Notes: generated from the letters alone by a model not told the origin. A stretch of DNA of 29,718 nucleotides from a virus (IMGVR_UViG_3300030433_001380:1-29718), one strand, 5' to 3'; positions 1 through 23,590 are shown, counted from the stretch's first letter. Numbers and translations: made by a program.

Positions 1-3000
1 AACAATTCATTTTCCACAACTTCTAATGTTTTCTTTCCTCTTTTCTGAATACTTTTGATGTCTTTTCTTATAGACCTAAACTTATTACCATAAACTATAA
101 TTTCGTTATAGAAATCTAGTGTTGATTTTAGTTTTTTATAATCATAAATTTCAAAATCCTTTTGTCTCCCTATGCCTGTTTGTGGCTTAGAAACATCACT
201 AATAACTATTCTAGAATAATAAGAATTATCATCAGCATCCTTTATTGTAAATACGCCATCCTCAACAGTTAATTGTTTATCTTTTTTATTTAGAATGAAG
301 TTAAGTGCTGAATACAAATCAACTCCTTGAAAGTTAGGGGCCATAAATAATGGATAATCAGACTTTGTTAAATCAAATGTAATATCATTTTCTTCTAATA
401 AATCATTAACAATAACTTCTGATTCATTACTTATGTGAGCAACCGTTCCAATCATTAGGCGTTTTACATCTGTATTAATTTCATTATTTACTGTTATATT
501 CATGGTTTCTGAAATACTTGTTACTCCCAAAAGAGTTTTCATTTCATCAAAGATAAGTCCTTTTCTAAAAGAATCAGTTCCTCCAACATAATTAACTGAA
601 GTCTTAAACATTGTATCTCCATCAGAAAGACACATAGTATGGTCTATATCAGATATTAACTCTTCAATTTTATCTTTTCTAAGAACCAAATAATCACTAG
701 TGGTTTGTCTATCAGGGTCAACAATAACATACATAGATTGAACTGCATCATCATTATTTATTTCATCATCATCTCCCGTTTTATCATGTAGTGCGAAATT
801 AATAATACCTGCTTCATACATTTTATTTTCTCTTGGCTTTTTTGTATAAGAAGAACTCATAAAGTTCGGTATGATAGTTTTAGGCCCGAAACTGTGGAAA
901 CAAGTGTGATTCGGTTGCATTATCCTCATTGGATTATTATGGTCAAATTCTGTATCTAATATTATAATATGTTCTTTATCAGCACTTTGGGTGGTTCCAT
1001 AATTTGTATTTACTTCATGTGAAATAACATAGCATATTTTTGTAGGATACCCGTCATTAATACTTCCCCATAATTTTGTCGATTCGACTCCATTTTTATT
1101 TAGTTTAGTAGCATCATTAGAAACTAAATAACAACCTGTTAAGTCAAAGTGATTTAACCATAATTGTCCATCAGCAGCAGTTATTAAATAAGTATGCACA
1201 TCTTTATCTCCAACTGTTTTATTTTCAACACCTGTTAATGTGCTTAAACCTCCACCACTAGCATAATTTTTATGTGCAACTGTCATTCTTAATTGAGGCT
1301 TAAATCCAAAAATAACACCATCTGCTGTTTTATCATATGTTCTTCCTATTGTGTCATCTATATGTTCTCTTTCTGCAAAATCATTTTCAAGTGCTAAACC
1401 TATTAAACCAGTAGTTTTTTGAGAATAGTTAGGAACTATTATTCTTATGCTTCCTGTTTCAACTTGGCCCCCTACCATTCCTATATCTGCCTTTGAACCG
1501 CCTCCATCTTCAATACTAAACCTATCAAAAATTACGGGTAAAAATCGTTTATATAATTCATCTCCTGTTCCTTGACCTATTGCGCCACCATCATGTGTTT
1601 CCATATTACTAATATCTTGTAAAACTGATGAAGGGAAAGTAGTATGAGAAACTGTTCCATCTGAAGTATGACTAACAGAAGGAGTATAAGGAGTTTCTAG
1701 ATTTCCAATTCTAACAGGAAGAAATATATTAAAAACTCTTGCTGCTGATGGCGGGTCACTTGTTGTTGAGTTTCCTCCGCCAACATAATAATTATTATAT
1801 GTATCATAGAAAACTGAAGTATTATCTCCATAACCTGCTACATTACCACTACTATAATATCCCGCCCTTAACATAACTGCTGATTTTAACATATGAAGTC
1901 CTGTATTTTCTTGAACAAAGGTATCTGATTTTCCTACCCCAAATATTTCATTACTACAACCGCCATATTCTGCTCTAGGTATTCTTCTTATATTCGCAGA
2001 AGTAAAATAATTTAAGCCATCTGTCTTAAAAGCATCTTCATATAAAGTAACTGTTATATTAGGACTACTGCCTGTAATTGTTTTTACTCTGCCAATATAT
2101 CTTCCATTTGTGTCACAAAGAACATCATCAACAACAAAAGGATGACCTGTCGATATATTTCTTATTTCATCGCCTATAAGATAATTAGGATTACTACTAT
2201 CTGTTATTTGAACAGTTATTCCGCTATCAGTCAATCCATTAAATGTTGTCATTCTAAATTTAGGAATAGTTTTATTATTTTCAATAACATTTTCAGGGTC
2301 TATTTGATTAAAAGCCCAATCTAATACCACTTCAGTTAATCTCATCATAGAGAATCTTTTTAATGAATTAATTGTTTTTTCAGCAGAAATAATATTACCA
2401 TTTTGAAAATCACTATCTGTTAAACTCATAGTAGTTGTTCCTTGATTAGCATTTGCTTTAATATCTGACCTGTTTCCTTTAGTTGGACTTTTAAGAGCCA
2501 AGACACTATATTTAGTTAAATCTCTTGGTTGTGTAAAAGTTAGTGTTTGGCTGGATTTACTTCCTCCGGTAGTTGATACAGATAATTCAAATTCTGTTGA
2601 ACTAGTAATGCTTGAAACAGTTGCACCATCCGGTATTCCATCACCGCTAACTGTCATTCCTACGGTAATAATATTAGATGAAGTATGGGTAATAGTTGGG
2701 TCATTATTATATGATGCACCGCCTACAACAACTTTTTGCATTAGGCTATCTTTTCTTGTCGAAGAATAAGGCAATAAATCAGAGTTAGAAAACAAAAACA
2801 TTCTTGATATTTTTGGGTCATTTAAAGATAAACAAGTTTTTGTTTTATGAGGAAAAATTACTCCAGAATCAGCACCACTATATTGTAAAGAAGAAATTGT
2901 TGGATTAGCAGGATAAAGCATATCAATATATCCAAACTGAGTAATAAACTCTCTATCCCAAAATCTAGAACCTAAAGGAGATTGATTTCCTCTAGTTTCA

Positions 3001-6000
3001 ACTAATGTATGAGTATTGTCCTCATCAGAAGTTAAACCTGCACCAACTACTCCACTTAAATATGCACCGCTATTTATTCTATAAGATGCGCCAAACTTAT
3101 ATGCCGAAGCATAGTAACGAATCTTGCTTGGTATTTGTGAATAATAATCTTGAATAGAAGCATTTACAGTATCAGACAAAGATGATATTTTTACAAGAGG
3201 ATGAATTGTTGAACTATAATTTCCTTTTTCTAAATTATATATTCTATACTGAGAAACTCCCATTTTTGTTGTATAAGAATCGGCTCTTGTTCCTCCGAAG
3301 TTTATGGCAAAATCATAATGCCCTGTTATAGATTCAGAATTATTCGTTTTAAGTAATGGGCTAACTAATGAAATTATCTTTCCTGTATGTAAATGCCCTC
3401 CATTTAATAAATTAAGTTCATGTGTTAATTTGCTTGTTTCTCCACTATTTGCATAAGTTAGGGCTTGCACTGTTCCTCCGCTTGTGGTTACTTCTCTATC
3501 TAAAAATATTCTAATAGTTTCGCTACCTAAAGTATAATTGTTAAAGAATGTAGCCGACATAAACATTCCTACAAAAGTTCCATCAATATATATTGGTTTT
3601 TTATGATATTTTCTAGGACTAGAAATAGAAGATAATGGCTCACTAAATACAGGCGCACTCCCGCCATTAGAAATATCTATCGTTAAAAATCTTGAATTAG
3701 AAGCAGAAGCACAAGTTCCTAAAGTAGTAGTGCTAAATGTAGTATCTTCTGTATTAGCATAATTAATGTCAACTCTTCCTAAAGTCAAAGGAATATGAGG
3801 TGCTATTTCTAATACAGTATTATCAAAATCATCTTTTTTAACGCTTAATACATTAAAGTCTAATAAGGTATTAACAACATCATTAGTATAATAACTTTTA
3901 GTTGAGGCATCATCATCTAATCTTGATTGAAAATAATTATCAGATTCCATGCCCATTGTTTCACTAATATAATATCCTACTGCTTCAGGATTAGTCGATA
4001 TACTAGAACCGCCTAAAAGTTCTCCTTCTGCACCATTAGAGCCTATTACTACTCCACCATCGAAAAAGACCCCTTTATTTGCAGCCCCTAACAAAGAAGA
4101 AACAGAAGTATCTAAATGATTAGAAGATAGTGCTTTATTAAATACATAATTTTTATTTGATGATTTATATAAATTATTTCCATTAGTATTTCTCGTATTT
4201 GGAAAATCAACTAATTCAAAATTAGAGGCTGTTCTATTTGCCGCTACTTCTCCTAAATAAATTAAATTTTGACTAGTAGCATCAGTTTCAATATAGATTC
4301 TATCTCCTGCACTAACTGTAATACTACCTGAACAAGTAACTGTTTTATCATCAAAATCACAAGTAGCAGTTACTCCTAAAGCAGTTACTTTATTGTATGG
4401 ACTATTAGAAGAATAAATAATATCAGTGGAAAACAAAGTGTCTTTATTTACAATAGGCGAAAGTAATTTATTAAACTTATCTCTTCCACTTATTTCCATA
4501 AAGGTTTGTCCTTTATCATGATAAGCGTCTATTGTTTCTATTTCTCCATTAAATCTTTCTATCTCAATGTAATAGGTTCCCTTTGCATAGTCTAAAGAAT
4601 TATCACTAAAGTATGCAGCATCATCAAAAGTAACTGCCATTAATCCTAATTCAGTATCAGTAGCAGAAACATCTCCTTCAATAAAATTAAAACCGCCAGC
4701 CGCTATCTTAATTTTAAGATTTGTTCTATTTGGAACTAAAGAGAAGGTTGTTAATATATTGTTGCTTGCTCGACTATATGCCCTTCTATACACTTTAGCA
4801 CCTTCTGTTGGGCGTTTAGAAGAACTTATACTACTGAAGAAATCTTCAGTATCTTTTAATCTAGTTTGATATAAATCAAATTTTTGTATTCCTCCGCTAA
4901 CAGCACCTTGTTTCCCACCAACAATGTATATTCTATCTCCTATTAGTAATTCATCATATAGTCCGAATAATCTTAAATTAACAGGAGTAACGGGTTGTAA
5001 ATCATTAATAGTATCAAAACTATAATCTGTGCTAGAAAGATTATACGAATTATAAGTAATTCCTGTATCAACCCACTCATCTAACTTAGCCTTGAATACT
5101 CTATGCCTTGCTTTATACTCATCAAACTCATTTATTTTTTTACCTAATATTTTAGCAGGGTCAATCATTTTAGTTTCACATAATCCACCTTTTCCACCAA
5201 TAGAATCATATATTTGATTAGACATTACATTAGATAATGAATTACATTTATTTGGTGAAAAATCATAATGAACATATCTATATGGCCCTGCTAAATCTTC
5301 AATGTCAGAATTATAAGCATGACCGTCAAGAATAATTCTATCATCTAATTCTCTTCTAGAGTTATAAAAAGACCCTGAATAGTTACTACCATTATGCGCC
5401 CATGTGGAAGAATATCCTTCATTATTTGTATTAGCATAAGCATTACTATCAAGTGTTCTTAAATTATCTGATAGAGTAACATTTAATTCATATTTACTAT
5501 AATCAATTATTTTAGTCCCAAAATCAGGAACAGTAATAGCAGTAGTTATATCATTTATTGTTAGTGTTGTTGAAGGAGATGATGTTGCAACATGACCTCC
5601 CATTCTAAATTCATATTTTTTATTATGGTCTAATTCATTTTTCTTATCTAATTTATCATTATAAAAGTAAAAGTGGGGTCTAGAACAAAACATTCTATTT
5701 TTATTGCTATAAGAAGTTTGAGATAAAAGCCCAATGCTAAGTGCTACTATTTTACTAGTATTTTCGACTCGATATAACATAAACTTAGTATTTTTTGCAA
5801 TTTCATTTCCTAATCTTGGTTCAAACTCAAAAGCATCACCGCTTACATCTTCTGTTAAGGATTGAGTAAGTTTAGCAAAATGATGTTGTAAATAGTCATC
5901 AGAATGAATTAACACAAAGTAATCATAACTATTAAAATCAAAAGCATTTATTCTAAAACCTGTTTGTGTAGCATCATCAAAACATTTAATTCTATATCCT

Positions 6001-6230
6001 TCTGTTGTTGATAAATTATTATATTGAGTTCCAGCAGAAGAAGCCTGTTCAATAACAATGGGCGCAGTTCCGGTTGCATCTTCTGTTATATATGCAGCAA
6101 TACGAGCAAAACTCGCAGTTGCAAAAGAACCAGCACCATCAACTAATACAGGATTAGTAGGAACATTAAATCCTGAATTACTATTACTTGGAATAGTAGT
6201 AAGAGCAATTCCTTTATTAAATACTCTCAT
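1..6230 (-). CDS. Giant tail-tip / baseplate-hub-like protein (>2076 aa, 3' end outside window)
   Basis: Not in the ORF track. ATG at 6230 overlaps the upstream TGA (ATGA) and follows GAGGAGGTTGA. Translates MRVFNKGIALTTIPSNSNSGFNVPTNP...; the same frame is open where I spot-checked it (about 4560, 2530 and positions 3-60), and no terminated ORF is listed, so it runs off the edge. Hub-like segments ERFNGEIETI...MEISGRDKFNKLL (about 4450-4560) and FYNEIIVYGN...DIKSIQKRGKKTLEV (about 20-120). Last gene of the tail module. Confidence 0.8.
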   Translation of the reverse strand, partial: MRVFNKGIALTTIPSNSNSGFNVPTNPVLVDGAGSFATASFARIAAYITEDATGTAPIVIEQASSAGTQYNNLSTTEGYRIKCFDDATQTGFRINAFDFNSYDYFVLIHSDDYLQHHFAKLTQSLTEDVSGDAFEFEPRLGNEIAKNTKFMLYRVENTSKIVALSIGLLSQTSYSNKNRMFCSRPHFYFYNDKLDKKNELDHNKKYEFRMGGHVATSSPSTTLTINDITTAITVPDFGTKIIDYSKYELNVTLSDNLRTLDSNAYANTNNEGYSSTWAHNGSNYSGSFYNSRRELDDRIILDGHAYNSDIEDLAGPYRYVHYDFSPNKCNSLSNVMSNQIYDSIGGKGGLCETKMIDPAKILGKKINEFDEYKARHRVFKAKLDEWVDTGITYNSYNLSSTDYSFDTINDLQPVTPVNLRLFGLYDELLIGDRIYIVGGKQGAVSGGIQKFDLYQTRLKDTEDFFSSISSSKRPTEGAKVYRRAYSRASNNILTTFSLVPNRTNLKIKIAAGGFNFIEGDVSATDTELGLMAVTFDDAAYFSDNSLDYAKGTYYIEIERFNGEIETIDAYHDKGQTFMEISGRDKFNKLLSPIVNKDTLFSTDIIYSSNSPYNKVTALGVTATCDFDDKTVTCSGSITVSAGDRIYIETDATSQNLIYLGEVAANRTASNFELVDFPNTRNTNGNNLYKSSNKNYVFNKALSSNHLDTSVSSLLGAANKGVFFDGGVVIGSNGAEGELLGGSSISTNPEAVGYYISETMGMESDNYFQSRLDDDASTKSYYTNDVVNTLLDFNVLSVKKDDFDNTVLEIAPHIPLTLGRVDINYANTEDTTFSTTTLGTCASASNSRFLTIDISNGGSAPVFSEPLSSISSPRKYHKKPIYIDGTFVGMFMSATFFNNYTLGSETIRIFLDREVTTSGGTVQALTYANSGETSKLTHELNLLNGGHLHTGKIISLVSPLLKTNNSESITGHYDFAINFGGTRADSYTTKMGVSQYRIYNLEKGNYSSTIHPLVKISSLSDTVNASIQDYYSQIPSKIRYYASAYKFGASYRINSGAYLSGVVGAGLTSDEDNTHTLVETRGNQSPLGSRFWDREFITQFGYIDMLYPANPTISSLQYSGADSGVIFPHKTKTCLSLNDPKISRMFLFSNSDLLPYSSTRKDSLMQKVVVGGASYNNDPTITHTSSNIITVGMTVSGDGIPDGATVSSITSSTEFELSVSTTGGSKSSQTLTFTQPRDLTKYSVLALKSPTKGNRSDIKANANQGTTTMSLTDSDFQNGNIISAEKTINSLKRFSMMRLTEVVLDWAFNQIDPENVIENNKTIPKFRMTTFNGLTDSGITVQITDSSNPNYLIGDEIRNISTGHPFVVDDVLCDTNGRYIGRVKTITGSSPNITVTLYEDAFKTDGLNYFTSANIRRIPRAEYGGCSNEIFGVGKSDTFVQENTGLHMLKSAVMLRAGYYSSGNVAGYGDNTSVFYDTYNNYYVGGGNSTTSDPPSAARVFNIFLPVRIGNLETPYTPSVSHTSDGTVSHTTFPSSVLQDISNMETHDGGAIGQGTGDELYKRFLPVIFDRFSIEDGGGSKADIGMVGGQVETGSIRIIVPNYSQKTTGLIGLALENDFAEREHIDDTIGRTYDKTADGVIFGFKPQLRMTVAHKNYASGGGLSTLTGVENKTVGDKDVHTYLITAADGQLWLNHFDLTGCYLVSNDATKLNKNGVESTKLWGSINDGYPTKICYVISHEVNTNYGTTQSADKEHIIILDTEFDHNNPMRIMQPNHTCFHSFGPKTIIPNFMSSSYTKKPRENKMYEAGIINFALHDKTGDDDEINNDDAVQSMYVIVDPDRQTTSDYLVLRKDKIEELISDIDHTMCLSDGDTMFKTSVNYVGGTDSFRKGLIFDEMKTLLGVTSISETMNITVNNEINTDVKRLMIGTVAHISNESEVIVNDLLEENDITFDLTKSDYPLFMAPNFQGVDLYSALNFILNKKDKQLTVEDGVFTIKDADDNSYYSRIVISDVSKPQTGIGRQKDFEIYDYKKLKSTLDFYNEIIVYGNKFRSIRKDIKSIQKRGKKTLEVVENEL

Positions 6231-10605: not shown

Positions 10606-12177
10606 TCACCCCATTAATGCTGCGTGTGTAATAATAGTGCAGCCGTTTTCTTTTAATTGTCTTGGCATAACTGTTGCTTCAACAGTAATTGGCCCTTTAT
10701 CATCAGGAACAGTCCAATTAGCGGCACTTGTAAAGTAGTTTTCAAATTCTAACTTAATTTGTTCACCGTTACTCTTATCAAATTGTAGTGTAATGTCATT
10801 GGTAATTTCTTCATCTTGGTCTAAGAGTTCTCTAAATAATGTATCATCAGTAACCATAGCAGTAAAAGATAATTCATAAGTTCTTTGTGCAGGAATACCT
10901 TCTTTAACAGATTTGTTACCTATTCCTAAATATCTCTTATCTTGTATATTATTGTTAATAGTTAAAGTAAAGTTTGTAATTTTAAGGAAGTCTTGATTAT
11001 AAATTGTAAATCTTCCATCACTAAAGAAGAATGGCTCTAAGTGACTTGCAATTGCACCCTTTCTGTTAGTAAAGTTTTCAACATCAGAAACATTTCTGCG
11101 AGCATACATTTCTTCGTCAACATCTAATGCAGTTACAGTGCTTGTATTCAAGTCCATAGTCATTTTAACTTCTTCGTTTTCATTAGCGGTCATAGTAAGA
11201 GTATTAATTCTATTTCCTCTAGCAATACGAACAAAAGTATGGCTTTCAGTTGCAGCCGAATCAGTATCAGTTAAAAATGTATCTGTGCTTTCTAATTTAG
11301 ATATAGAGTGTTCTAAAGCAAACGATGGTAATTTAACAGTATCTTGTTCATTGATAGTATAAGTAATAAAATTAGTAGCAAAATCAGAATCAGTTAAAGC
11401 ATTTAGATGAATTAAATCTCCTACTGTTGTATCTGTCGGCATTAATGGAGGAACAATTTCTGTTCCAATTGTTCTGTAAAAGATTGGGCCATCTTCAATA
11501 TGTGCGCTATCATCGTGAATAAACTTATCTTGGTCTGCACTATTTACATCAAAAGGCTCAGAAAAACCGCTACTTGTTAAAGCAGTTCTAATGTTAGAAG
11601 GAACAGTAGTAGCGGTGCATTTACCTAAAGCGTAATAAAGCCAATGTCCTTGATGAGTCATTAAAGCAATATTTCCTCCACTTGCAGTTTCAATACCTTT
11701 GTATTGGTGAGTAAAGTTTCTTGAACCGCCAAGAGCCAAATTAAGTTGTTTCATCTCAACTTCAAGATTAGGGAAAGTAGCAGATTCAACAAGACCAATA
11801 AAATTATCGGAATTTAAAGTTGATTTGCTAGAAATAGCAGGTGCAGGGCAAGGTGCTGCATATCCTCTAATAACATAATAATCATTAGTAGCAGTTGATT
11901 TTGCTTCAGGAGTAAAAGTTATTGTTGCTGCGGCAGTTCCACTACCAGAATTAGCAGTAATAGTATGAGTTGATTGATATACATTAGAATTATTATATCT
12001 ATCAATAGTGCAACCAACATATAAATCTTTAATTAAGCGAAAATGAGTTTGGTCAGCATGAAAAGTGATTGTTGATTCATTACCACTAACTGCTGTCTTT
12101 TTAACATAATAATCCACTTCGGGAACAAACGCTAGTGTTGCCCCACTTCCTACAAATATTTCTTCATTTACTGCCAT
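10606..12177 (-). CDS. Major tail tube protein with inserted domains (523 aa)
   Basis: GGNIALM...WLYYALG, LPSFALE, RINTLTMTA, ITNFTLTINNNI, RTYELSFT and ITVEATV match the tail-tube fold pattern; lies between terminator and chaperones. Confidence 0.8.
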   Translation of the reverse strand: MAVNEEIFVGSGATLAFVPEVDYYVKKTAVSGNESTITFHADQTHFRLIKDLYVGCTIDRYNNSNVYQSTHTITANSGSGTAAATITFTPEAKSTATNDYYVIRGYAAPCPAPAISSKSTLNSDNFIGLVESATFPNLEVEMKQLNLALGGSRNFTHQYKGIETASGGNIALMTHQGHWLYYALGKCTATTVPSNIRTALTSSGFSEPFDVNSADQDKFIHDDSAHIEDGPIFYRTIGTEIVPPLMPTDTTVGDLIHLNALTDSDFATNFITYTINEQDTVKLPSFALEHSISKLESTDTFLTDTDSAATESHTFVRIARGNRINTLTMTANENEEVKMTMDLNTSTVTALDVDEEMYARRNVSDVENFTNRKGAIASHLEPFFFSDGRFTIYNQDFLKITNFTLTINNNIQDKRYLGIGNKSVKEGIPAQRTYELSFTAMVTDDTLFRELLDQDEEITNDITLQFDKSNGEQIKLEFENYFTSAANWTVPDDKGPITVEATVMPRQLKENGCTIITHAALMG

Positions 12178-12721: not shown

Positions 12722-12906
12722 TTCTCTAATTCCTCCACTATTTTCTTTTCAACATCTTTACAAAATGCTTCTTCAGCATTTCTAATTATTTCTTCATCAC
12801 TAAAACTAATATCTATTCCTATTTGTTCAGACAAGTCTTTCATTACTAGTTGTCTTTCTTTTTGAATATTTAAATATTCTTCAAAGGATTTAGTATTTAT
12901 TTTCAT
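12697..12906 (-). CDS. Small hypothetical neck-region protein
   Basis: ORF in operon order. Start revised to ATG 12906 (MKINTKSF), which forms an ATGA overlap with the upstream stop. Confidence 0.6.
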   Translation of the reverse strand: MKINTKSFEEYLNIQKERQLVMKDLSEQIGIDISFSDEEIIRNAEEAFCKDVEKKIVEELEKWMKSVSS

Positions 12907-14144
12907 TTTATCGGAACCTTTCGCATTACTTCCTTCCAAGAAGCCCTTTTAGGGTTTAATGGTTGAGGTGTTGAACCTGTTGGAACATTTATGTTTTGTG
13001 CGGCTTGTCTAGCAGCATAAGCAGTTCTTGGGTCTATTCTAGAAGTTGCTGAAGGAGTGGCCTTTGGTATGTTTAATTTTGCTGCACTTGCTTCACGATT
13101 TTGTTGAGCAGTTGCGGCATCTTCTCTTTTTGCCCTTTCTATTGCTTCTTGCCTTCTTAAATACTCAGGAGTTATTCTTGCTGGTTGTTTTTGTTGTTGT
13201 GGTTGTTTTTGCTGTTGTTGTTGATTTACATTTCTAAATGCTCTTTGTTTATCACTAGCAACAATAGGTTGAGTTAATCTTTCAGGAATTCTAACAACAG
13301 GTTTATTCACAACAGGTTTATTCAAATTCAATCCTTGTGGCAAAGGCATTGAAACACCTTTATCTTGAGGAAGCGGTATTTTTCTAGCAGTTGGTGGCTT
13401 TGGTGGTAGTGGCATTTGAGTTACTTCTGTTCCGGTATCGGGTAAAGGAACTCCTTCTCTATTTATTCTATCTTGTTCATCTTGTTTATCTTTAGCCGCT
13501 TGTTCTCGCATTCTTGCTAATTCGGCTTGATATGCTTCTCTTGCTTTTTTCCTTTCAAGTAATTCTTCTTCAGTTTTTTCATTTCGTCTTTCTTTTGCGG
13601 TTTCTCTTTGTTCAAAAGCATAAGGCAAATTTCTTAAAGTTGCTGCACTAGCGGCTTGTTGTCTTTTTGCTTTCCTTTCTGCTAATTCTTTATTTTTTAG
13701 TTCTAACTTTTGAGCATCCTTTCTTGCTTTTGTTTCCTTAGCATCTCTAATTGTTTGGTCTTGAACGGCAGGTAATTGACTTCTATAATCCTGTTCATCC
13801 TCTCTTCTAAGTTGTTGTTTCCAATTTTCCATGTCTAATTTATTTTGTTTAGCCTGTTCTTGAGCATCTAGATATTGTCGTCTAGCATCATCAACTTGTT
13901 TTTGATTTCTTTTTTCTCCGAAATAATCCTTTACTCTTCCAAAAAGATTCTTTTTACCTACATCTGGAACATCAAAATCTCTTTGAGTATTTCTTGCTTT
14001 ATAGTCTGCAATTCTTTTTTTGTTTCTTTCAAGTTTAGCGGCTCGACCCTTTTTCCTTTGTCCTGCTTTAACATCTTTAGGAGTTTTTCTTCGGGTAGCC
14101 CTTCTTGAAGGGTCTTTAAGGATTTCAAACCATGCTTCTGCCAT
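12903..14144 (-). CDS. Low-complexity R/K/Q/P-rich protein with N-terminal WFEILK motif (413 aa)
   Basis: GAGGGAG RBS; charged coiled-coil N-half, PLP repeats and a poly-Q tract; no recognisable domain. Confidence 0.7.
   Translation of the reverse strand: MAEAWFEILKDPSRRATRRKTPKDVKAGQRKKGRAAKLERNKKRIADYKARNTQRDFDVPDVGKKNLFGRVKDYFGEKRNQKQVDDARRQYLDAQEQAKQNKLDMENWKQQLRREDEQDYRSQLPAVQDQTIRDAKETKARKDAQKLELKNKELAERKAKRQQAASAATLRNLPYAFEQRETAKERRNEKTEEELLERKKAREAYQAELARMREQAAKDKQDEQDRINREGVPLPDTGTEVTQMPLPPKPPTARKIPLPQDKGVSMPLPQGLNLNKPVVNKPVVRIPERLTQPIVASDKQRAFRNVNQQQQQKQPQQQKQPARITPEYLRRQEAIERAKREDAATAQQNREASAAKLNIPKATPSATSRIDPRTAYAARQAAQNINVPTGSTPQPLNPKRASWKEVMRKVPIK
13294..13323. repeat. Perfect 15-bp tandem duplication (acaacaggtttattc x2; encodes NKPVV x2)
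   Basis: Read directly from the sequence. Confidence 0.85.
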
Positions 14145-15463: not shown

Positions 15464-17056
15464 TTACTCACCTGCTATATTTAATCTTTTTAGTTTCTCA
15501 TATCTGTTATTAAAGTCTGAAATAATATCTCTAAAATCTTCATTAACTCCTTTTGCCCCTCTTTGTCTAAGATAAGGGTTAAAGTCGAATTCATATCTTT
15601 TTCTTTGATAGTATTGCATTTTAAGAGTGGCATCTTTTAAGTAATCATATAATCCTTCTCCATCATAAGAAAGATTTTTAGGAGGACTTTTAATAGTTAA
15701 TTCTATCTTAAATTGATATACTACATCAGTATCTCTTAATGTTTTCTTAGCACTCTCAAATATATCTGATTGCTCAACCCATTTTGTTATTTCAGGAATA
15801 AAGAACTCATCAAAATCTAAAACATTTTCATCAAAGTATTTAATTTTAGTTCCAGCAAAAGAAATTATTTCGTATCTCTTTCCTCTCCAAATAAAATCAT
15901 TTCTTTTATCATCAAGCAAACTATAATTAGCCGCACCAAGAGCAGCATCATCCACTATATCTTTATATTCTTCTTCTGAAACAGATATTTTTTTAACTTT
16001 TGTCCACTTATACTTTTTTTGTCTTTGTTCTGCATCTGTTATTCTCATTTCTTGGACTTCATCCCAATTTTCCACAAATCTGTAATTAATATCAATAATT
16101 TTATCTTTGTTTTCTTCTTGGAATTTTTCAAAGGCTTCCATAATTTCAGTTGATTCTTCTTCATTTTGAGGCTCTAAAAGTTCTCCTTGACCTTCTTCTT
16201 GAACAGGTCTAAAGGTTAAATGCTTTTGGTCTTTCTCTTTTATTCCTTTTAATTCTGGAATATCTAAACTAATATCTATTTCTTCTTTTTGTCCTGCTTT
16301 GAATGCACCTGCATTTTCGGCTCTAAAGATTCCATTAGTTACACCATCAGATTTTATTTTTTTATCTTTTAAGTCTTTTTCTATTTTTATGTTTGATTCA
16401 CTAGGAAATGTTATTACTACATGCTTACCTAAAGGCTTTCTAGGCGCAATAGAATAGGTTTCTTTTTTAGTAGTAATATCGAATTGAACATCCATATTAT
16501 ACCAATCTTTACCAAACATTTGTTTATAAGTTTTACCAAACTTTTTAATGTCTTGCAAATCTCTTCCATATTTAGTAAAAGTTATTCCTTGTAAATCATT
16601 TACAAAATTATCATCATTAACTAAAGCAATTAATTTTTTTCTATTTAGCAATTTATTAACCTTTTCTTCATCAACAACGCTTTTAACACCCTCTTCTTTT
16701 CTTTCTATTCTCTTTCCCTTTTCTCTATCTATTATTGTAGCAAATTGACCTGAGCCAACTTGTTTCATATAACCAGACTTAAATTGTCTTAGACCAGAAG
16801 CACTCTTTTTAAGAAATTCAATAGATGGAGTTTCTTTAAGAATAGAATTAACTATTTCTTTTAAGTCCCTCATCATCTCATCAACATAAGGTTCTTCTCC
16901 TTGTGTGGGATTTTTAGCATACTTTTTTGCTTTTCTAAAATTAGATAAAAAGGTTCTATCATTATCTAACAAAAAGGCTTTAATCATTATTTCTAATTCT
17001 TCTCGACTATCAACAGTGTCTATTGACCTAGAACCAAAGTTACGAAGAAGAACCAA
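15464..17056 (-). CDS. Hypothetical protein (530 aa, K/E/D-rich)
   Basis: Long ORF; TTG start after GAGGTGAATTAA; no motif recognised. Confidence 0.7.
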   Translation of the reverse strand: MVLLRNFGSRSIDTVDSREELEIMIKAFLLDNDRTFLSNFRKAKKYAKNPTQGEEPYVDEMMRDLKEIVNSILKETPSIEFLKKSASGLRQFKSGYMKQVGSGQFATIIDREKGKRIERKEEGVKSVVDEEKVNKLLNRKKLIALVNDDNFVNDLQGITFTKYGRDLQDIKKFGKTYKQMFGKDWYNMDVQFDITTKKETYSIAPRKPLGKHVVITFPSESNIKIEKDLKDKKIKSDGVTNGIFRAENAGAFKAGQKEEIDISLDIPELKGIKEKDQKHLTFRPVQEEGQGELLEPQNEEESTEIMEAFEKFQEENKDKIIDINYRFVENWDEVQEMRITDAEQRQKKYKWTKVKKISVSEEEYKDIVDDAALGAANYSLLDDKRNDFIWRGKRYEIISFAGTKIKYFDENVLDFDEFFIPEITKWVEQSDIFESAKKTLRDTDVVYQFKIELTIKSPPKNLSYDGEGLYDYLKDATLKMQYYQRKRYEFDFNPYLRQRGAKGVNEDFRDIISDFNNRYEKLKRLNIAGE

Positions 17057-17066
17057 TTAATTCACC

Positions 17067-17714
17067 TCACATTAACCATTTAGCCCAAGCCGCACCTTTT
17101 TGAATTGCTGAACCTAATCCTAAACCTGCTGATGGCGGTTCATACGACATTTGGCCGTTAGCATCAATCCAATAAGGTCTGCCATATCCGTCTGTTCCAT
17201 TTGGAGGAACAGGATAACCTGTGCCATTATTCATAGCACCTTGCATTTGCTGATATTGCTGAGTTTGCCCTGTTAAACCAGCAATTGCCATACCTGCGGT
17301 TGGGCCAGCACCTCCAAATCCTTGAGATTCAAGATATTGTTGTTTTGCTAGTTTTCTTTGATTTACTACTTCTGTATTAATAGCAGCATTCAATAACTTT
17401 TGAATATCTAAATCAATATTTTCTTGAGTAATTCTTTCAAACTCTCTCATAGCATCTGAGTTAATAGTTACATTACTTCCATTTTGAGTAAAAGATAATT
17501 TACTTAACATTTGACTAACTACTCTTTGAACTACATCTTCCATTAGTTTTTCAAGAGCAACTAAAAATTGTTCTCCATGATATTGAAAAAACTCTTCAAC
17601 ATGGTTATCCTGTAAAGATAACAAATTATTCATAGATTTAAATTGTTGTTCTCCTTGTTGCTGAACAGCATTCATTACTGTTCCATTACTTGTTCCTAGT
17701 ATTCCCATACTCAT
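17067..17714 (-). CDS. Q/G-rich helical protein with C-terminal amphipathic helix
   Basis: Helical core, G/Q/P/Y-rich tail, ends LGSAIQKGAAWAKWLM; start at or next to the ATGA overlap with the upstream gene. Confidence 0.7.
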   Translation of the reverse strand: MSMGILGTSNGTVMNAVQQQGEQQFKSMNNLLSLQDNHVEEFFQYHGEQFLVALEKLMEDVVQRVVSQMLSKLSFTQNGSNVTINSDAMREFERITQENIDLDIQKLLNAAINTEVVNQRKLAKQQYLESQGFGGAGPTAGMAIAGLTGQTQQYQQMQGAMNNGTGYPVPPNGTDGYGRPYWIDANGQMSYEPPSAGLGLGSAIQKGAAWAKWLM

Positions 17715-18373
17715 TCACCCTTTTTATTTTCCGTTACCGGCTTAATTTCATTATTAGCCTTGACTCCCTCTTTAATCATCAAATAGTTAAGTCTATCTGT
17801 TAGTATATTAATCTGTCCAACTACTTCAATTGCTTCATTGGTTGGACTCCTGTTATCCCCTAATGTGGGTGGCTTTATTAAATAACCGCTTGCCGTGAGC
17901 GAAGCAATATCCTCTTTAGATAAATGAGTAATTGGGCCACTTTTGAGCATTTTAGGCATTTTAGGTTTAAATGAAGCAAAAGCAAGCCCATGCTTATCAG
18001 CAAGTATTGTTTGTTGTAACATTTCTAACTGCATAAACATAGAAGCGTGTTTTGGGCAATATGTTCCTGCTAATGGCCTACCTTTGATTACTCCATCTAA
18101 AGGAATAGGAGGCCGCCTATAATCCCCACTTTCCCAAACATGGTGCATTCCACAAACAACGCATCTATCTTTCAAATTAAACTTTTTTCCATAAGGTAAA
18201 CCAAAAAATTTCTTTTTTTCTGGAGTTAAAACTTTAATTAATTCTTTTAATTGTTTTTTAGGTTTAATTGCTACAAACTTATATTCTGTAACAACTCCGC
18301 TTGCTCTTGCTGCTTTTAATGGTGACATAAAAACAGGCGGTGTCGTTTGTCCTATTAATTGGTTTTGATACAT
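17711..18373 (-). CDS. Putative zinc-binding protein (CxxC...CxxH)
   Basis: RCVVCGMHHVW ... TYCPKHA; directly downstream of the GTPase. Confidence 0.65.
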   Translation of the reverse strand: MYQNQLIGQTTPPVFMSPLKAARASGVVTEYKFVAIKPKKQLKELIKVLTPEKKKFFGLPYGKKFNLKDRCVVCGMHHVWESGDYRRPPIPLDGVIKGRPLAGTYCPKHASMFMQLEMLQQTILADKHGLAFASFKPKMPKMLKSGPITHLSKEDIASLTASGYLIKPPTLGDNRSPTNEAIEVVGQINILTDRLNYLMIKEGVKANNEIKPVTENKKGE

Positions 18374-18383
18374 CTTTCATTCC

Positions 18384-19052
18384 TCAGTAATCTTTTATCA
18401 TTGTCATTACGCCTCTATATACCATTTCGGGGTCTGACTTTGCTGAAACTATATACTTAAAACAAGGTATTCCTTTATCATTTAATTGTCTCATTCCATA
18501 CTTAAATGGCTCAAATATTCTATGTTTATCTATGGTTTGTCCTTCTTCTAATGGATATTTTTCTCCCCATATATCATATTTATTAGCCCATATACCTACT
18601 GCCATCGGATAATCTGAATCTCTTTTTTTTCTGTTAGTGGGCCAAGTATTAGAACAAATTGTATCAACTAAAAATTTCCATGCTACTTGATGGTCTAGAT
18701 TTGCTTCATTATCTAAATGTCTATGGTCTATCATAAATATAACATACTTAACTCTTCTTTTTTGCATGTCTTTAACCCATTCTTTCCAATAAATTGCTTC
18801 ACCGCCTAAATCTGCACTTTTTATTGTGTGTGAATCTCCATCAATTTTAACGCTTTTTCTTGAGGCTCTATGTAATCCAACTGTTCTTTCATTAATTTGC
18901 GGCACTTCTCCCCTTGTTCTTAATTGATGACTTAATGTTGTTTTACCTACCATTGTTGCACCATAGACTCCAAAATTAATCGCATATATTTTTTTCCAAA
19001 AGCCTATCATCGCTTCACCGACAAGGATAGCAAATCCCGTCATCATTGACAT
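18384..19052 (-). CDS. Ras-superfamily small GTPase, Arf/Sar1-like
   Basis: All five G motifs present: G1 GATMVGKT, G2 RTVG, G3 DLGGE, G4 NKYD, G5 SAK. Hydrophobic/amphipathic N-terminal extension; Trp in switch II (DLGGEAIYWKEW). Confidence 0.9.
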   Translation of the reverse strand: MSMMTGFAILVGEAMIGFWKKIYAINFGVYGATMVGKTTLSHQLRTRGEVPQINERTVGLHRASRKSVKIDGDSHTIKSADLGGEAIYWKEWVKDMQKRRVKYVIFMIDHRHLDNEANLDHQVAWKFLVDTICSNTWPTNRKKRDSDYPMAVGIWANKYDIWGEKYPLEEGQTIDKHRIFEPFKYGMRQLNDKGIPCFKYIVSAKSDPEMVYRGVMTMIKDY

Positions 19053-19053
19053 A

Positions 19054-19269
19054 TTATATCTCCCATGAATGCCAAAAAGTATCTAATATCCATCCGAGGA
19101 TATTAATATCAAAAACACCCATTATATTTCCAATAAAGAATGCTGAAAGGGTAGCACAACTACCCCAAAACCATGCTCTTATCTTGAAAAAGAGCATGTC
19201 TGCCGAATGCGCCCTTGATTGATTATAGATATAATCATTATCAGTAAGGCCCATAAGGTCATTTAGCAT
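19054..19269 (-). CDS. Small membrane protein (71 aa)
   Basis: GAGGTGG RBS; hydrophobic segment AWFWGSCATLSAFFIGNIMGVF followed by an amphipathic Trp-rich tail. Confidence 0.7.
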   Translation of the reverse strand: MLNDLMGLTDNDYIYNQSRAHSADMLFFKIRAWFWGSCATLSAFFIGNIMGVFDINILGWILDTFWHSWEI

Positions 19270-19278
19270 TTAACCACC

Positions 19279-19677
19279 TCATTGAAGAGTAGCGGCTAAA
19301 AATTCACTCCCAACGGTATTATCATCTGTTTCTGTTGGTATGTTAGCATAGGGATTAATGAAAGTAGTATTGTATTGTTTTGCACTTTCTCGCATTTTAT
19401 TGCGTTGTTGTTCATCTCTTGCTTTTCTTTCCCAATAGGCAGCAATCTTTCTATCAAGTAGCCACATCTCGATACGGTCATTAAGTGCCAAATCGAATAG
19501 TGCCTTCATAACCATAATTGAGCCTATTGTTCCTAACCCAAACAAAGTAGCGTGGGCTAAAGTAGTATAAGGGAAACCTGTTCCATAATTAGCATAAACC
19601 CAAACATTTGCACCACTTAAAGCACCCACAAACAATATAGTCATAACTAATCTAGTATCTTGATTCAATACTGCCAT
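19279..19677 (-). CDS. Two-TM membrane protein with charged cytoplasmic tail (holin-like architecture)
   Basis: GAGGTGA RBS; hydrophobic helices LVMTILFVGALSGANVWVYA and ATLFGLGTIGSIMVMKALF, then a charged helix. Confidence 0.7.
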   Translation of the reverse strand: MAVLNQDTRLVMTILFVGALSGANVWVYANYGTGFPYTTLAHATLFGLGTIGSIMVMKALFDLALNDRIEMWLLDRKIAAYWERKARDEQQRNKMRESAKQYNTTFINPYANIPTETDDNTVGSEFLAATLQ

Positions 19678-21018: not shown

Positions 21019-22359
21019 TCAAAGAAGGTTTGTAATCTTCCCCTGTCCCTTAAAGTAGGAACAACCAACTTCAGCAATTGTTCGGTATAGAGCCTTGTTT
21101 CCTAGAGTTCCTACACCAAATGGGTTTCCGTTAGAAATACCATCCTCAAAGTATTGAGTAGGCTTCATTACAGACAACCAAAGATGGTCGGTATCTAAGA
21201 ATAGCATATCGCTGATACAAGATGAATTAACACCTGTTGATGGCATAGCCGCAACAGGAATCAAAGGAATGTCGTAATAAGTTGAAACTCTAAATCCAAC
21301 TTCTTGACCCTTTACACCTCTAACTCCATTAACAGTAGGAACAATTTCCTTTCTATCCATGAATCTTTCTTGTGCTTGCAATAGGTCAGACAAGGTTTGA
21401 AGTGTATCATATCCTGTTAGAATGACCTTTGGTGAACCACCAGCAACTCTCAAATCTCTAATCATGTTATTTAGAACAGTTAGAGTCAATTGACGAGCAG
21501 ATGCAGAAGCGTATGATGCCCCGAAATCAACTTGTGAATCAAGGAAAGAATCATTATCACGGTTAGAACCGTAAATGTGACTTACTGCGGTTGTAGTAGC
21601 GGAACCCAAAAGATTTGCAGTTGCCATAGCATCTAACTCATCTTCAGAACAAATAACCTTGTATAGAGAAGTATAGTTTCTATCAATGTTTGCTACTGTT
21701 GTTGTTGCTACTGCTGAACCAGCATCATAGTTTTCTAATGGCATTACCAGCATAGCGTTTTGAACTTCAGCGTGGTGCTTGCCCATATCTTCACGCAATT
21801 GCGCTCTAATATCTCCAATACCATCATCAATTGCCGCCATTTCCATAGCCAATTCGCTGAAATCAAATTGATGAGCAACGATTTTTGGGCTTGTAAATAG
21901 TGTAGTGTATGTTGGTGCAATTGGGCCAAGTCCATCATTTGCAGTATTTAGACCTGCATTTTCAGGAACACCACCAATTAGGTCTGCTCTAAGAGTTGAA
22001 GCACCCAAAGAATCTAAAGAAGTAGTTCCGGTAACTCCAATAGATAGAGAATTACCGCTACCACCGGCAGGTCTATCCGAAAGGACTCTCCAACCGCTTG
22101 AAGTGTATGGTCGCTTTGAAATTACTGATAGAGCATTACATTCTCTATTTAGCATAGACCAAACCTTTTGGCCGTATAATACTTGGTAAAGATTACCATT
22201 AATACCGCTTGTTGGGCTTGTCTGTGTAGCCGCATCATGTCCAGCATGAATACCGCTTAATCCGCCAGCAGCCTTCAATAGTTGATTATTGAATGCGCCA
22301 CCTGCAATTCCATATGTTTGTGCTTCTAAATCTGCAATAGTGTTAATATATCCAGCCAT
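21019..22359 (-). CDS. Major capsid protein (HK97 fold)
   Basis: Follows the prohead protease. Motifs YGQKVWSMLNRECNALSVISKRPY..SGWRV, GGVPEN, PKVILTGYDT, YYDIPLIP, DMLFLDTDHL and QGKITNL resemble halovirus/magrovirus capsid proteins. Start revised to ATG 22359 (MAGYINTIADLE) after GGAGG. Confidence 0.9.
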   Translation of the reverse strand: MAGYINTIADLEAQTYGIAGGAFNNQLLKAAGGLSGIHAGHDAATQTSPTSGINGNLYQVLYGQKVWSMLNRECNALSVISKRPYTSSGWRVLSDRPAGGSGNSLSIGVTGTTSLDSLGASTLRADLIGGVPENAGLNTANDGLGPIAPTYTTLFTSPKIVAHQFDFSELAMEMAAIDDGIGDIRAQLREDMGKHHAEVQNAMLVMPLENYDAGSAVATTTVANIDRNYTSLYKVICSEDELDAMATANLLGSATTTAVSHIYGSNRDNDSFLDSQVDFGASYASASARQLTLTVLNNMIRDLRVAGGSPKVILTGYDTLQTLSDLLQAQERFMDRKEIVPTVNGVRGVKGQEVGFRVSTYYDIPLIPVAAMPSTGVNSSCISDMLFLDTDHLWLSVMKPTQYFEDGISNGNPFGVGTLGNKALYRTIAEVGCSYFKGQGKITNLL

Positions 22360-22360
22360 C

Positions 22361-23590
22361 TTAAATTCCTCCTGCCATCTTGTGAATGTCCGACCAATCC
22401 ATTTCAGCCAATTCATCCATTGTTGGGAGTTGTATTTGTGACTCTTCTTGAGCCTTTAGAATTGTTTCCTTTTCAGCAGTTAAAGACTTTCTTAGTGCTG
22501 TAAATTCATCCTTTAGTGAAGCAATTTCAGACTTTGCATCATAGTTTGCCTTAGCAATTGCATCATGTCTTGATGAAGTTTCGGCTTCAAACCTTGCTTC
22601 AAATTGCTTTTGAAGATTATCGTATGCTAACTTTTCAAGTTGTTCTTGACGGAAAGCATCATAAGCCTTCTCAATGTTAGCAACGGACAAATCAAGAGTT
22701 TCTAATTCATCGTTGTTAAATGCCTTAACAACCGGCAAATCAGACGCTCTTGGCTTACCGTTATCAATGACGATTCTATCTGCTGGTTCACCGATTTCGA
22801 TACCGCCAGCATCAAGAGTGTTTAGAACTGCTTTGTTGGAATCATCCGTGTATTCAGCCTTTTCATCCATCATCTCTTCTTCATCTTCTTTATCCATGTG
22901 ACCGCCATAGCCGCCTTTATCCATATCTTCTTTCATATAATCACCTTTTTCATTTTCAGTCATCATACTCTCTTCTTCTTCTTTCCTAAGCGTATTAACT
23001 TCTTCCATTAAAGAATCTAATTCCGCTAGGGCTTTTTCTAGTTTGCTCATATTATTCGCCTCTTTTTCTTGTTTAAGAATATCAAACTTTGCTTCAGGGT
23101 TTATTCCTTTTTCGCAGATTGTAACCTCATGTAGTTCTAGTTTGCTTATTTCATTGTAATCTCCTAACTCTGGATGGTTTTTCTTTACTTTATGTATTGC
23201 TTGCCCTCCAATGCTAAATGACCTCAATGAACCTTTTCTAATGCCTCTATTTATTTCTTTGGCTTTTTCTATATCATCTCTTAATTTTATTACTACAAAG
23301 AATCCAACATCATCAACTTCAGTTTTCCATATCTTTCCGTTTTTATCTCGATAAGATTTTACTACTTCACCAACTTGAACATTAGAATGGTTTGTCATTA
23401 CATTTCTAAACTTTGGGTTCTCCATATACTTTTGAACTGCTTCATTAAGAGCCTTGAGTGTAATTAAATCATTTTGTTTATCAACGATTTCTATTGAAGC
23501 ATATCCACCAATCATTAAGTCATCATTTGATTTTAGAATCATTAATTCATCAGCAGTATCTCTTTTTATTAGAAGTGACATTTGCTTCAT
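22361..23590 (-). CDS. HK97-type prohead protease fused to a C-terminal scaffold
   Basis: IGGYASIEIVDKQNDLI, catalytic His (MTNH), catalytic Ser (RSFSIGG), LHEVTICEKGINPEAKF; then an acidic coiled-coil scaffold. Start could be 23605, 23590 or 23581. Confidence 0.92.
   Translation of the reverse strand: MKQMSLLIKRDTADELMILKSNDDLMIGGYASIEIVDKQNDLITLKALNEAVQKYMENPKFRNVMTNHSNVQVGEVVKSYRDKNGKIWKTEVDDVGFFVVIKLRDDIEKAKEINRGIRKGSLRSFSIGGQAIHKVKKNHPELGDYNEISKLELHEVTICEKGINPEAKFDILKQEKEANNMSKLEKALAELDSLMEEVNTLRKEEEESMMTENEKGDYMKEDMDKGGYGGHMDKEDEEEMMDEKAEYTDDSNKAVLNTLDAGGIEIGEPADRIVIDNGKPRASDLPVVKAFNNDELETLDLSVANIEKAYDAFRQEQLEKLAYDNLQKQFEARFEAETSSRHDAIAKANYDAKSEIASLKDEFTALRKSLTAEKETILKAQEESQIQLPTMDELAEMDWSDIHKMAGGI

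Follow-up and report, generated by a model that had tools for sequence, protein, structure and literature searches.

The window examined here, the whole 29,718-nucleotide (nt) stretch of viral DNA IMGVR_UViG_3300030433_001380:1-29718 (a 29.7-kb virus record with a completeness of about 32%), carries a block of five genes, A through E, that includes a small GTPase gene. All five are on the minus strand. Gene A (19677-19279) encodes a protein of 132 amino acids (aa) with two predicted membrane helices followed by a charged helical tail; gene B (19269-19054; 71 aa) encodes a soluble N-terminal half, one predicted membrane helix, and a Trp-rich end; gene C (19052-18384; 222 aa) encodes a predicted Ras-superfamily small GTPase resembling Arf, Sar1, and SRbeta; gene D (18373-17711; 220 aa) encodes a basic soluble Cys/His protein; and gene E (17714-17067; 215 aa) encodes a helical core flanked by Gln/Gly/Met-rich low-complexity ends. 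Genes A and B are separated by 9 nt, B and C by 1 nt, and C and D by 10 nt, while D and E overlap by 4 nt; these open reading frames (ORFs) agree with the initial annotation, which had placed five genes at 17067..19677, about 10 nt or less apart or overlapping. Since both flanking genes are packed just as tightly against the block (10 nt on each side), it is synteny rather than packing that delimits it. On the basis of Pfam and PHROGs matches, the window contains a magrovirus structural block with a prohead protease, an HK97-type capsid, an embedded DNA ligase, a tail tube, and a tape measure. As C is 75% identical to gp088 of the Poseidoniales virus YSH_150918, a protein annotated as hypothetical, the host of the window virus is presumably a Marine Group II archaeon.

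The block behaves as a single conserved unit, and all of its genes are under purifying selection. We compared 178 loci anchored on the GTPase gene (80 loci near the window, the best of 264; 80 from a distant clade, the best of 145; 4 and 13 from two other clades; and one GTDB contig), counting a locus as fully covered if it extended at least 1.5 kb upstream and at least 2.6 kb downstream of the GTPase gene. The order A-B-C-D-E was found in all 143 fully covered loci, and the 35 shorter ones contained either all five genes (18 loci) or a contiguous subset (17 loci). To avoid selecting on the GTPase, we also used the best 80 of 596 loci ranked by capsid similarity. The ordered block was present in 35 of the 35 loci that extend 5.5 kb past the capsid gene; 10 loci extending 2.6 to 5.5 kb contained four or five of the genes each, and the 35 others were too short. 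Both sets include near-duplicates, and the counts do not represent independent events. The co-occurrence in relatives that the initial annotation had put forward as a test was seen in all fully covered loci. Median identities to the window in the capsid-anchored set were 85% for C, 80% for E, 76% for A, 68% for D, and 67% for B, compared with 74% for the capsid. Median pairwise ratios of nonsynonymous to synonymous substitution (dN/dS), obtained from the GTPase-anchored loci by a simple counting method applied to pairs of moderate synonymous distance, were 0.075 for C, 0.12 for A, 0.14 for E, 0.16 for D, and 0.18 for B; the capsid gave 0.20 and the two upstream neighbors 0.37. Values of 0.075 to 0.18 rule out pseudogenes or chance ORFs.

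Homology of the block across clades was scored by HHalign at 99.9% for C, 94% for D, and 63 to 95% for E. Protein A is probably homologous to the product of the first gene in other clades (57%, E value of 1e-4, 76 columns; controls, at most 6%), and the case for homology of B to its counterpart in second position is weak and comes mainly from position and build (hidden Markov model E value of 0.01; HHalign, 4 to 7%). Ten loci have a gap longer than 150 bases between B and C, as do 11 loci of the window clade and 19 of another clade between C and D; no such gap was found between A and B or between D and E.

The product of gene C is predicted to be a Ras-superfamily small GTPase with intact G boxes, able to bind and hydrolyze GTP. 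The window protein carries GxxxxGKT, the switch I Thr, DxxG, NKxD, and SAK, and in all 181 full-length copies we found G1, DxxG (G3), a Trp located 11 residues after the G3 Asp, and NKxD (G4), in keeping with the earlier description of an intact small GTPase. G3 takes the form DxGG in 164 of these copies, including the window protein, and DxAG in 17; for G5, 82 copies have SAK, and most of the rest have AT[KRN] or S[SA]Q. Only 56 copies have Gln next to DxxG on its C-terminal side, the remaining 125 having Glu, His, or Asp there, and hydrolysis may therefore need a partner. In an alignment of 29 GTPases, Thr57 of switch I is invariant, and the Leu-Asp pair typical of Arf at G1 positions 2 and 3 is absent from every row (0/29); the eight commonest G1 forms (158 of 181 copies) have AT, PT, ST, PS, AS, or PP at these positions. 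Against the Pfam Arf family (PF00025), the window protein gave no match at an E value of 0.1, and the GTPase of a more distant genome (G010, described below) reached 18.6 bits, under the cutoff of 22.3.

The AlphaFold model of C (pLDDT, 89) comprises a G domain plus a helix at residues 2 to 22. In a VIA-align search over 48,161 chains, the model tied at the top with Arf6 (Z score, 18.4; root mean square deviation, 2.5; 163 residues), Sar1 (17.8), and SRbeta (17.8), with the best Rab proteins at 16.6 and below. With P-loop-only and RecA matches set aside, the best match in a profile search of the PDB was 8OUN (E value of 2e-6), which we take to be the Asgard ArfR protein, followed by Arl8. The 8OUN alignment also has the Trp after G3, presumably an Arf/G-alpha trait. 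A related entry, 8OUM, has been cited for Asgard Arfs, and Arf traits are described as including Gly at the third position of G3 (DxGG) and Leu-Asp at G1 positions 2 and 3 (PMC11914678). Judged by the structural Z scores and the switch II pattern, C lies nearer to the Arf/Sar1/SRbeta side than to other small GTPases. The annotation of C as Arf-like is therefore upheld for the modeled fold and not for family membership: C appears to be an Arf-type switch by build, but because both the G1 Leu-Asp trait and the Pfam cutoff fail, we do not file it as an Arf family member. A hydrophobic N-terminal helix region is present in 29 of the 29 aligned GTPases; its hydrophobic moment over 11 residues is 0.47 in the window protein (range across the 29, 0.36 to 0.85), and the hydrophobicity of the first 17 residues is 1.51 (range, 0.89 to 2.48), so that the region is strongly hydrophobic as well.

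Some copies bear the name "GTPase SAR1 family protein" from automatic annotation at the Joint Genome Institute. Neither a phage collection (two queries) nor plasmids gave a match to the GTPase. A scan of GTDB, which detects close relatives only, returned one match (L081, a 12-kb contig in a Maricaulis bin) that we attribute to binning contamination, as it equals a viral contig (L010) in length and identity.

Of the two putative membrane proteins, A has two hydrophobic 19-residue stretches (Kyte-Doolittle scores of 1.74 near residue 10 and 1.59 near residue 43) and B has one (1.68 near residue 44) together with five Trp residues, as the initial annotation had it. A fits the build of a holin, namely, a small membrane protein with a charged C-terminal tail, although the resemblance is one of build only; no family match for A was found in Pfam or PHROGs. 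In alignments of D proteins, Cys71, Cys106, and Pro107 are invariant and His109 is nearly so, and D possibly carries a Zn site. Searches of Pfam, the PDB, and the ESM Atlas returned nothing meaningful for D (Atlas matches were all below 0.9), and a profile search of the PDB with E gave no match below an E value of 0.07; we consider D a candidate regulator or effector of C and E a candidate scaffold. The initial annotation had further proposed a Zn finger with a KKKFFG patch in D, a terminal amphipathic helix in E, and, more generally, a membrane-interacting element in every member. Of 175 D proteins, 2 have the exact KKKFFG, 48 have KKF[FIL]G, and 89 have CxxCG; of 166 E proteins, 69 have the WAKW end. 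The patch, the CxxC finger, and the terminal helix of E are thus clade specific, and so are the membrane-interacting elements proposed for D and E.

In the window, the block is placed between the major capsid gene of the HK97 type (21019..22416, minus strand, upstream; PF17236 and phrog_24667), whose product is about 25% identical to the capsid protein of halovirus HCTV-1, and the tail tube gene (10606..12177, minus strand, downstream; PF18906, E value of 3e-16). This agrees with the annotated location, but the labels "head decoration" and "neck" given to the immediate neighbors found no named family match in Pfam or PHROGs. Placement inside the virion operon, assumed at first for the cassette as such, holds only for the window clade. 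Three other tailed magrovirus genomes (G001, G002, and G004) carry the block on the strand of the capsid gene, about 21 kb upstream of it; in G001 and G004, the block precedes the terminase gene by about 10 kb. In these genomes, homologs of the window's downstream genes come after the capsid gene, with no cassette between them. The block is therefore on the strand of the capsid gene in the window and in all three tailed genomes in which it was located. A sixth gene, F, encoding two membrane helices, follows E in two tailed clades (examples of F are L116:10178-10435, L167:10374-10622, and L250:19301-19585) and in the lineage resembling group D that is introduced below; it was found neither in the window clade (five near-complete genomes, searched without a positive control) nor in G009. 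The 530-aa gene that follows E in the window (15464-17056) is very divergent, with a tblastn match in 9 of 80 loci and a clustered counterpart in 53, and is present in most close relatives.

The cassette also occurs in genomes of another kind. Magrovirus "group D" has been described as having PolB, a thermosome, a resolvase, and RNA polymerase A and no head-tail block (PMC5434244), and its nature is left open in the passages of PMC5434244 and PMC10160649 that deal with it. One such genome (G003), reached via one GTPase locus, has PolB, a primase, an Rpb1-like RNA polymerase subunit, a resolvase, a thermosome, and a 238-aa FtsK/HerA-like ATPase, and none of its 48 ORFs scanned matched a terminase, portal, or capsid protein. 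Using the most conserved protein of G003 (204 aa; 85% identical between G003 and G005), we reached three further genomes, G009 (140 kb), G010 (128 kb), and G011 (129 kb), each with direct terminal repeats and an estimated completeness of 100%. Judged by gene content, G003 and G009 fit the published description of group D, and G010 and G011 are only group D-like, as they have the thermosome, the resolvase, the ATPase, and a beta-rich block with no PolB match and at most a partial Rpb1. The order A-B-C-D-E is kept in all three complete genomes. G010 and G011 have one extra acidic gene with an Asp/Glu-rich tail between B and C (G010:66019-66768 and G011:124946-125851) and F after E; 11 metagenome loci of this D-like lineage have the same gene order as far as they extend. 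A tree of the C copies rejects a single clade for the five group D and D-like GTPases (p-AU of 6e-63), although its branches are long, its backbone is unresolved, and it includes no Arf, Sar1, ArfR, MglA, or ArvA sequences; we claim no direction of transfer from it.

Searches for head-tail genes in G009, G010, and G011 were negative for terminase and portal (PF17289 and PF04860, 0 of 3 genomes; both of two tailed controls were positive), for magrovirus capsid and protease profiles, for the tail tube, and for 12 structural-block queries in blastp. The negative is not entirely clean: in PHROGs, a family named "terminase large subunit," whose profile has 555 positions, is partly matched by the small ATPase, over about 165 residues, and short stretches of two G011 proteins match "tail fiber" and "major tail" families; these matches probably reflect a common ATPase domain and adhesin domains. 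An ordinary head-tail role for the block thus appears unlikely, because the cassette occurs in genomes without a detectable terminase, portal, or HK97 capsid, and in this respect the initial reading gains support. As a candidate tailless virion module, these genomes and G003 share the FtsK/HerA-like ATPase, the 204-aa beta-rich protein, and more beta-rich proteins (G009:1647-4190 and 138396-139124; G003:64982-72133; G010:78332-86876; G011:19917-28205), joined in G003 and G005 by an Arg/Lys-rich protein with membrane helices. The fold evidence for this module is weak: the model of the 204-aa protein has a pLDDT of 41, with a best Z score of 5.8, where the capsid proteins P23-77 VP16, HCIV-1, SPV1, and HHIV-2 stand among nonviral beta-sandwiches, and it has no Foldseek match under an E value of 0.001. 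The cassette of G003 and G009 adjoins the thermosome gene and lies 10 to 16 kb downstream of the putative capsid gene. Both genomes also encode a 1,600-aa Rpb1-like RNA polymerase subunit on the strand opposite that of its neighbors (G009:38529-43523; G003, L187:14377-19212).

Several other genes were observed near the block or in the window. A MazE/AbrB-family small gene (PF04014, over the cutoff) lies between C and D in L145 (2306-2527) and in about 10 related loci, in part of one tailed clade. Unrelated variable genes inserted beside the GTPase gene (13 families counted) begin with a common MWxx[ILV][LI]K, which is possibly a packaging or targeting signal; examples among others are L004:6666-7235, L006:5445-5996, L052:5706-5999, L057:6675-7139, and L072:3814-4317, and a variable 413-aa gene of the window (12903-14144) has a similar start. 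By their motifs, some of these genes look like acetyltransferase, nucleotidyltransferase, metallopeptidase, or ADP-ribosyltransferase folds, guesses that found no support in Pfam. At 3-6230, the window has a minus-strand ORF of at least 2,076 aa that lies 3' of the baseplate genes and runs past the window end.

The best explanation for these patterns is that the block is a self-contained module traveling among viruses whose particle genes differ, and its likely role is at the host membrane, not in the construction of the particle. As it is kept whole, has moved about, and is common to elements with and without head-tail genes, the host cell is its most likely target; the membrane is suggested by the two or three membrane proteins and by the greasy N-terminal helix of the GTPase, and late expression by the position of the block, in tailed genomes, on the strand of the capsid gene. 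When lytic viruses act on membranes late in infection, the purpose is usually exit. We therefore tentatively propose, with a probability of roughly 45%, that the block encodes a GTP-timed egress device that opens or buds the host membrane to free progeny. In such a device, A and B (plus F where present) would insert in the cytoplasmic membrane, C would dock via its N-terminal helix, D, whose gene is always the next core gene after C, would act as a regulator or effector, E would scaffold the assembly, and a late switch in nucleotide state would trigger the lesion or budding. No holin or endolysin family was found among the 27 window proteins in Pfam or PHROGs, as the initial annotation had noted for endolysins, in a record that is about 32% complete. 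In one marine metatranscriptome, 0.05 of words and six short contigs matched, one of which equals gene B over 160 bases with no differences, a match that speaks to neither timing nor cotranscription; a sigma-70 promoter scan returned fewer sites than shuffled sequences, the sigma-70 model being unsuited to archaea.

Several observations weigh against this proposal. Foldseek places Rab proteins first for C, and the N-terminal helix, which exceeds a plain amphipathic helix in both length and hydrophobicity, may be a fixed anchor. Neither A nor B has a holin family match in Pfam or PHROGs. The cassette of G010 and G011 comes after glycosyltransferase genes and runs in the direction opposite to that of the putative virion block, an arrangement that does not suggest late coexpression. 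Neither of two related archaeal tailed viruses, the halovirus HCTV-1 and the methanogen virus vir335, matches the GTPase profile, so tailed archaeal viruses can exit without such a GTPase. Group D is reported to be enriched in the cell fraction (PMC10160649), which fits a nonlytic or plasmid-like life, and the host of the cassette viruses is uncultured.

Other roles were weighed against egress. The block might instead be a membrane-anchored hub for host takeover that reorganizes the membrane or surface without releasing progeny, for instance, in superinfection exclusion, receptor removal, or a division block. Its presence in viruses with unlike particles would fit, as would the glycosyltransferase genes that adjoin it in G010, G011, and the metagenome loci, where it runs opposite to the virion block, and the MazE-family gene between C and D in some tailed genomes; but in tailed genomes the block always has the strand of the capsid gene and is either within the structural block or upstream of it, and no match to PHROGs host-takeover families was found, so that we regard this role as an improbable, though serious, competitor. 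A membrane platform for virion assembly or a viral factory, in which A and B tether a GTP-regulated scaffold of D and E where capsids or replication compartments form (and which in group D could recruit membrane for an inner lipid layer), is suggested by the low complexity of E and by the position of the block, which is in or near morphogenesis genes in the window clade and 10 to 16 kb from the putative capsid gene in G003 and G009. It would have to serve two unrelated capsid types, however, and the related HCTV-1 has capsid and tail genes without a GTPase match; moreover, lipid is not known from tailed virions, and we think such a platform a good deal less probable. The location between head and tail genes in the window clade and the membrane helices of A and B could also mean that the virion carries the products, which would act on the membrane when the genome is delivered. 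As this position is not kept in other clades, the block also occurs in genomes without head-tail genes, and none of the five proteins begins with MWxx[ILV][LI]K, virion-borne entry proteins seem quite improbable.

Comparison with known systems sets the egress proposal in context. C resembles the Arf family and SRbeta in its modeled G-domain fold (Z scores of 17.8 to 18.4; root mean square deviations of 2.4 to 2.5 over 156 to 166 residues), N-terminal helix, DxGG, Trp 11 residues past the Asp, NKxD, and, in the window clade, an SA[KR]-type G5. However, it is only 14 to 20% identical to these proteins, scores under the Pfam Arf cutoff, lacks the LD pair in G1 and the myristoylation Gly, mostly has Glu, His, or Asp for the Gln after DxxG, contains insertions, and is virus encoded beside four orphan genes. 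A hallmark of Arf is the two-residue interswitch shift that couples GTP to helix release (bioRxiv 2024.02.28.582541). In Haloferax, a small GTPase drives vesicle formation; the vesicle system there, ArvA/ArvB/ArvC (OapABC), resembles the block in that an archaeal small GTPase with a predicted N-terminal amphipathic helix shares an operon with a Zn-binding protein proposed as a GTPase-activating protein, and the system is tied to membrane budding (PMC10927574). ArvABC, however, is cellular and has three genes, whereas the viral block adds two or three membrane proteins, and membership in that system was rejected, since window D and E, like 19 D proteins, match neither DUF2073 nor DUF2072, the domains of the ArvABC partners. 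Like holins and virus-associated pyramid proteins, A and B are small proteins of the membrane that combine one or two predicted helices with a charged tail (PMC10791045), but they have no family match and no adjacent endolysin in the window, and neither holins nor pyramid proteins are described as using a GTPase in the passages of PMC10791045 devoted to them. The structural block with its embedded DNA ligase gene is shared with Magrovirales (Aoguangviridae, YSH_150918), and the PolB, thermosome, resolvase, and RNA polymerase A genes of G003 and G009 are shared with magrovirus group D. The Rab/Ras proteins of giant eukaryotic viruses, also virus-encoded members of the Ras-superfamily fold, provide the best BFVD matches (E values of 5e-10 and weaker), but their identity to C is 12 to 20%, their hosts are eukaryotic, and no common cassette was seen.

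We found no description of the magrovirus cassette or its GTPase in the literature searched: "GTP" is absent from the main text of PMC11706807 (whose annotation tables may name the gene), PMC10160649, and PMC5434244, and the ICTV profile (PMC10768690) names no GTPase. The novelty lies in the gene system; the GTPase is itself a divergent representative of a superfamily already known, and its function here is inferred. The exit of tailed archaeal viruses is an open question, for which the block offers a small, expressible candidate; in genomes of archaeal viruses, holin genes have been called "elusive" (PMC10791045). Surface oceans contain abundant Marine Group II archaea and viruses of these archaea, and the route of lysis therefore bears on carbon turnover. 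The occurrence of an Arf-like switch with a membrane helix in viruses of non-Asgard archaea bears on how such switches spread, and the sharing of the block with group D ties that unexplained element to magroviruses via a nonreplicative module. That tailed viruses of the HK97 type and tailless ones of the jelly-roll type, infecting the same marine archaea, have in common an Arf-like, GTP-timed egress machine that crossed between virus realms is a doubtful proposition at present; if true, it would represent a new kind of viral exit in prokaryotes, exchanged between realms.

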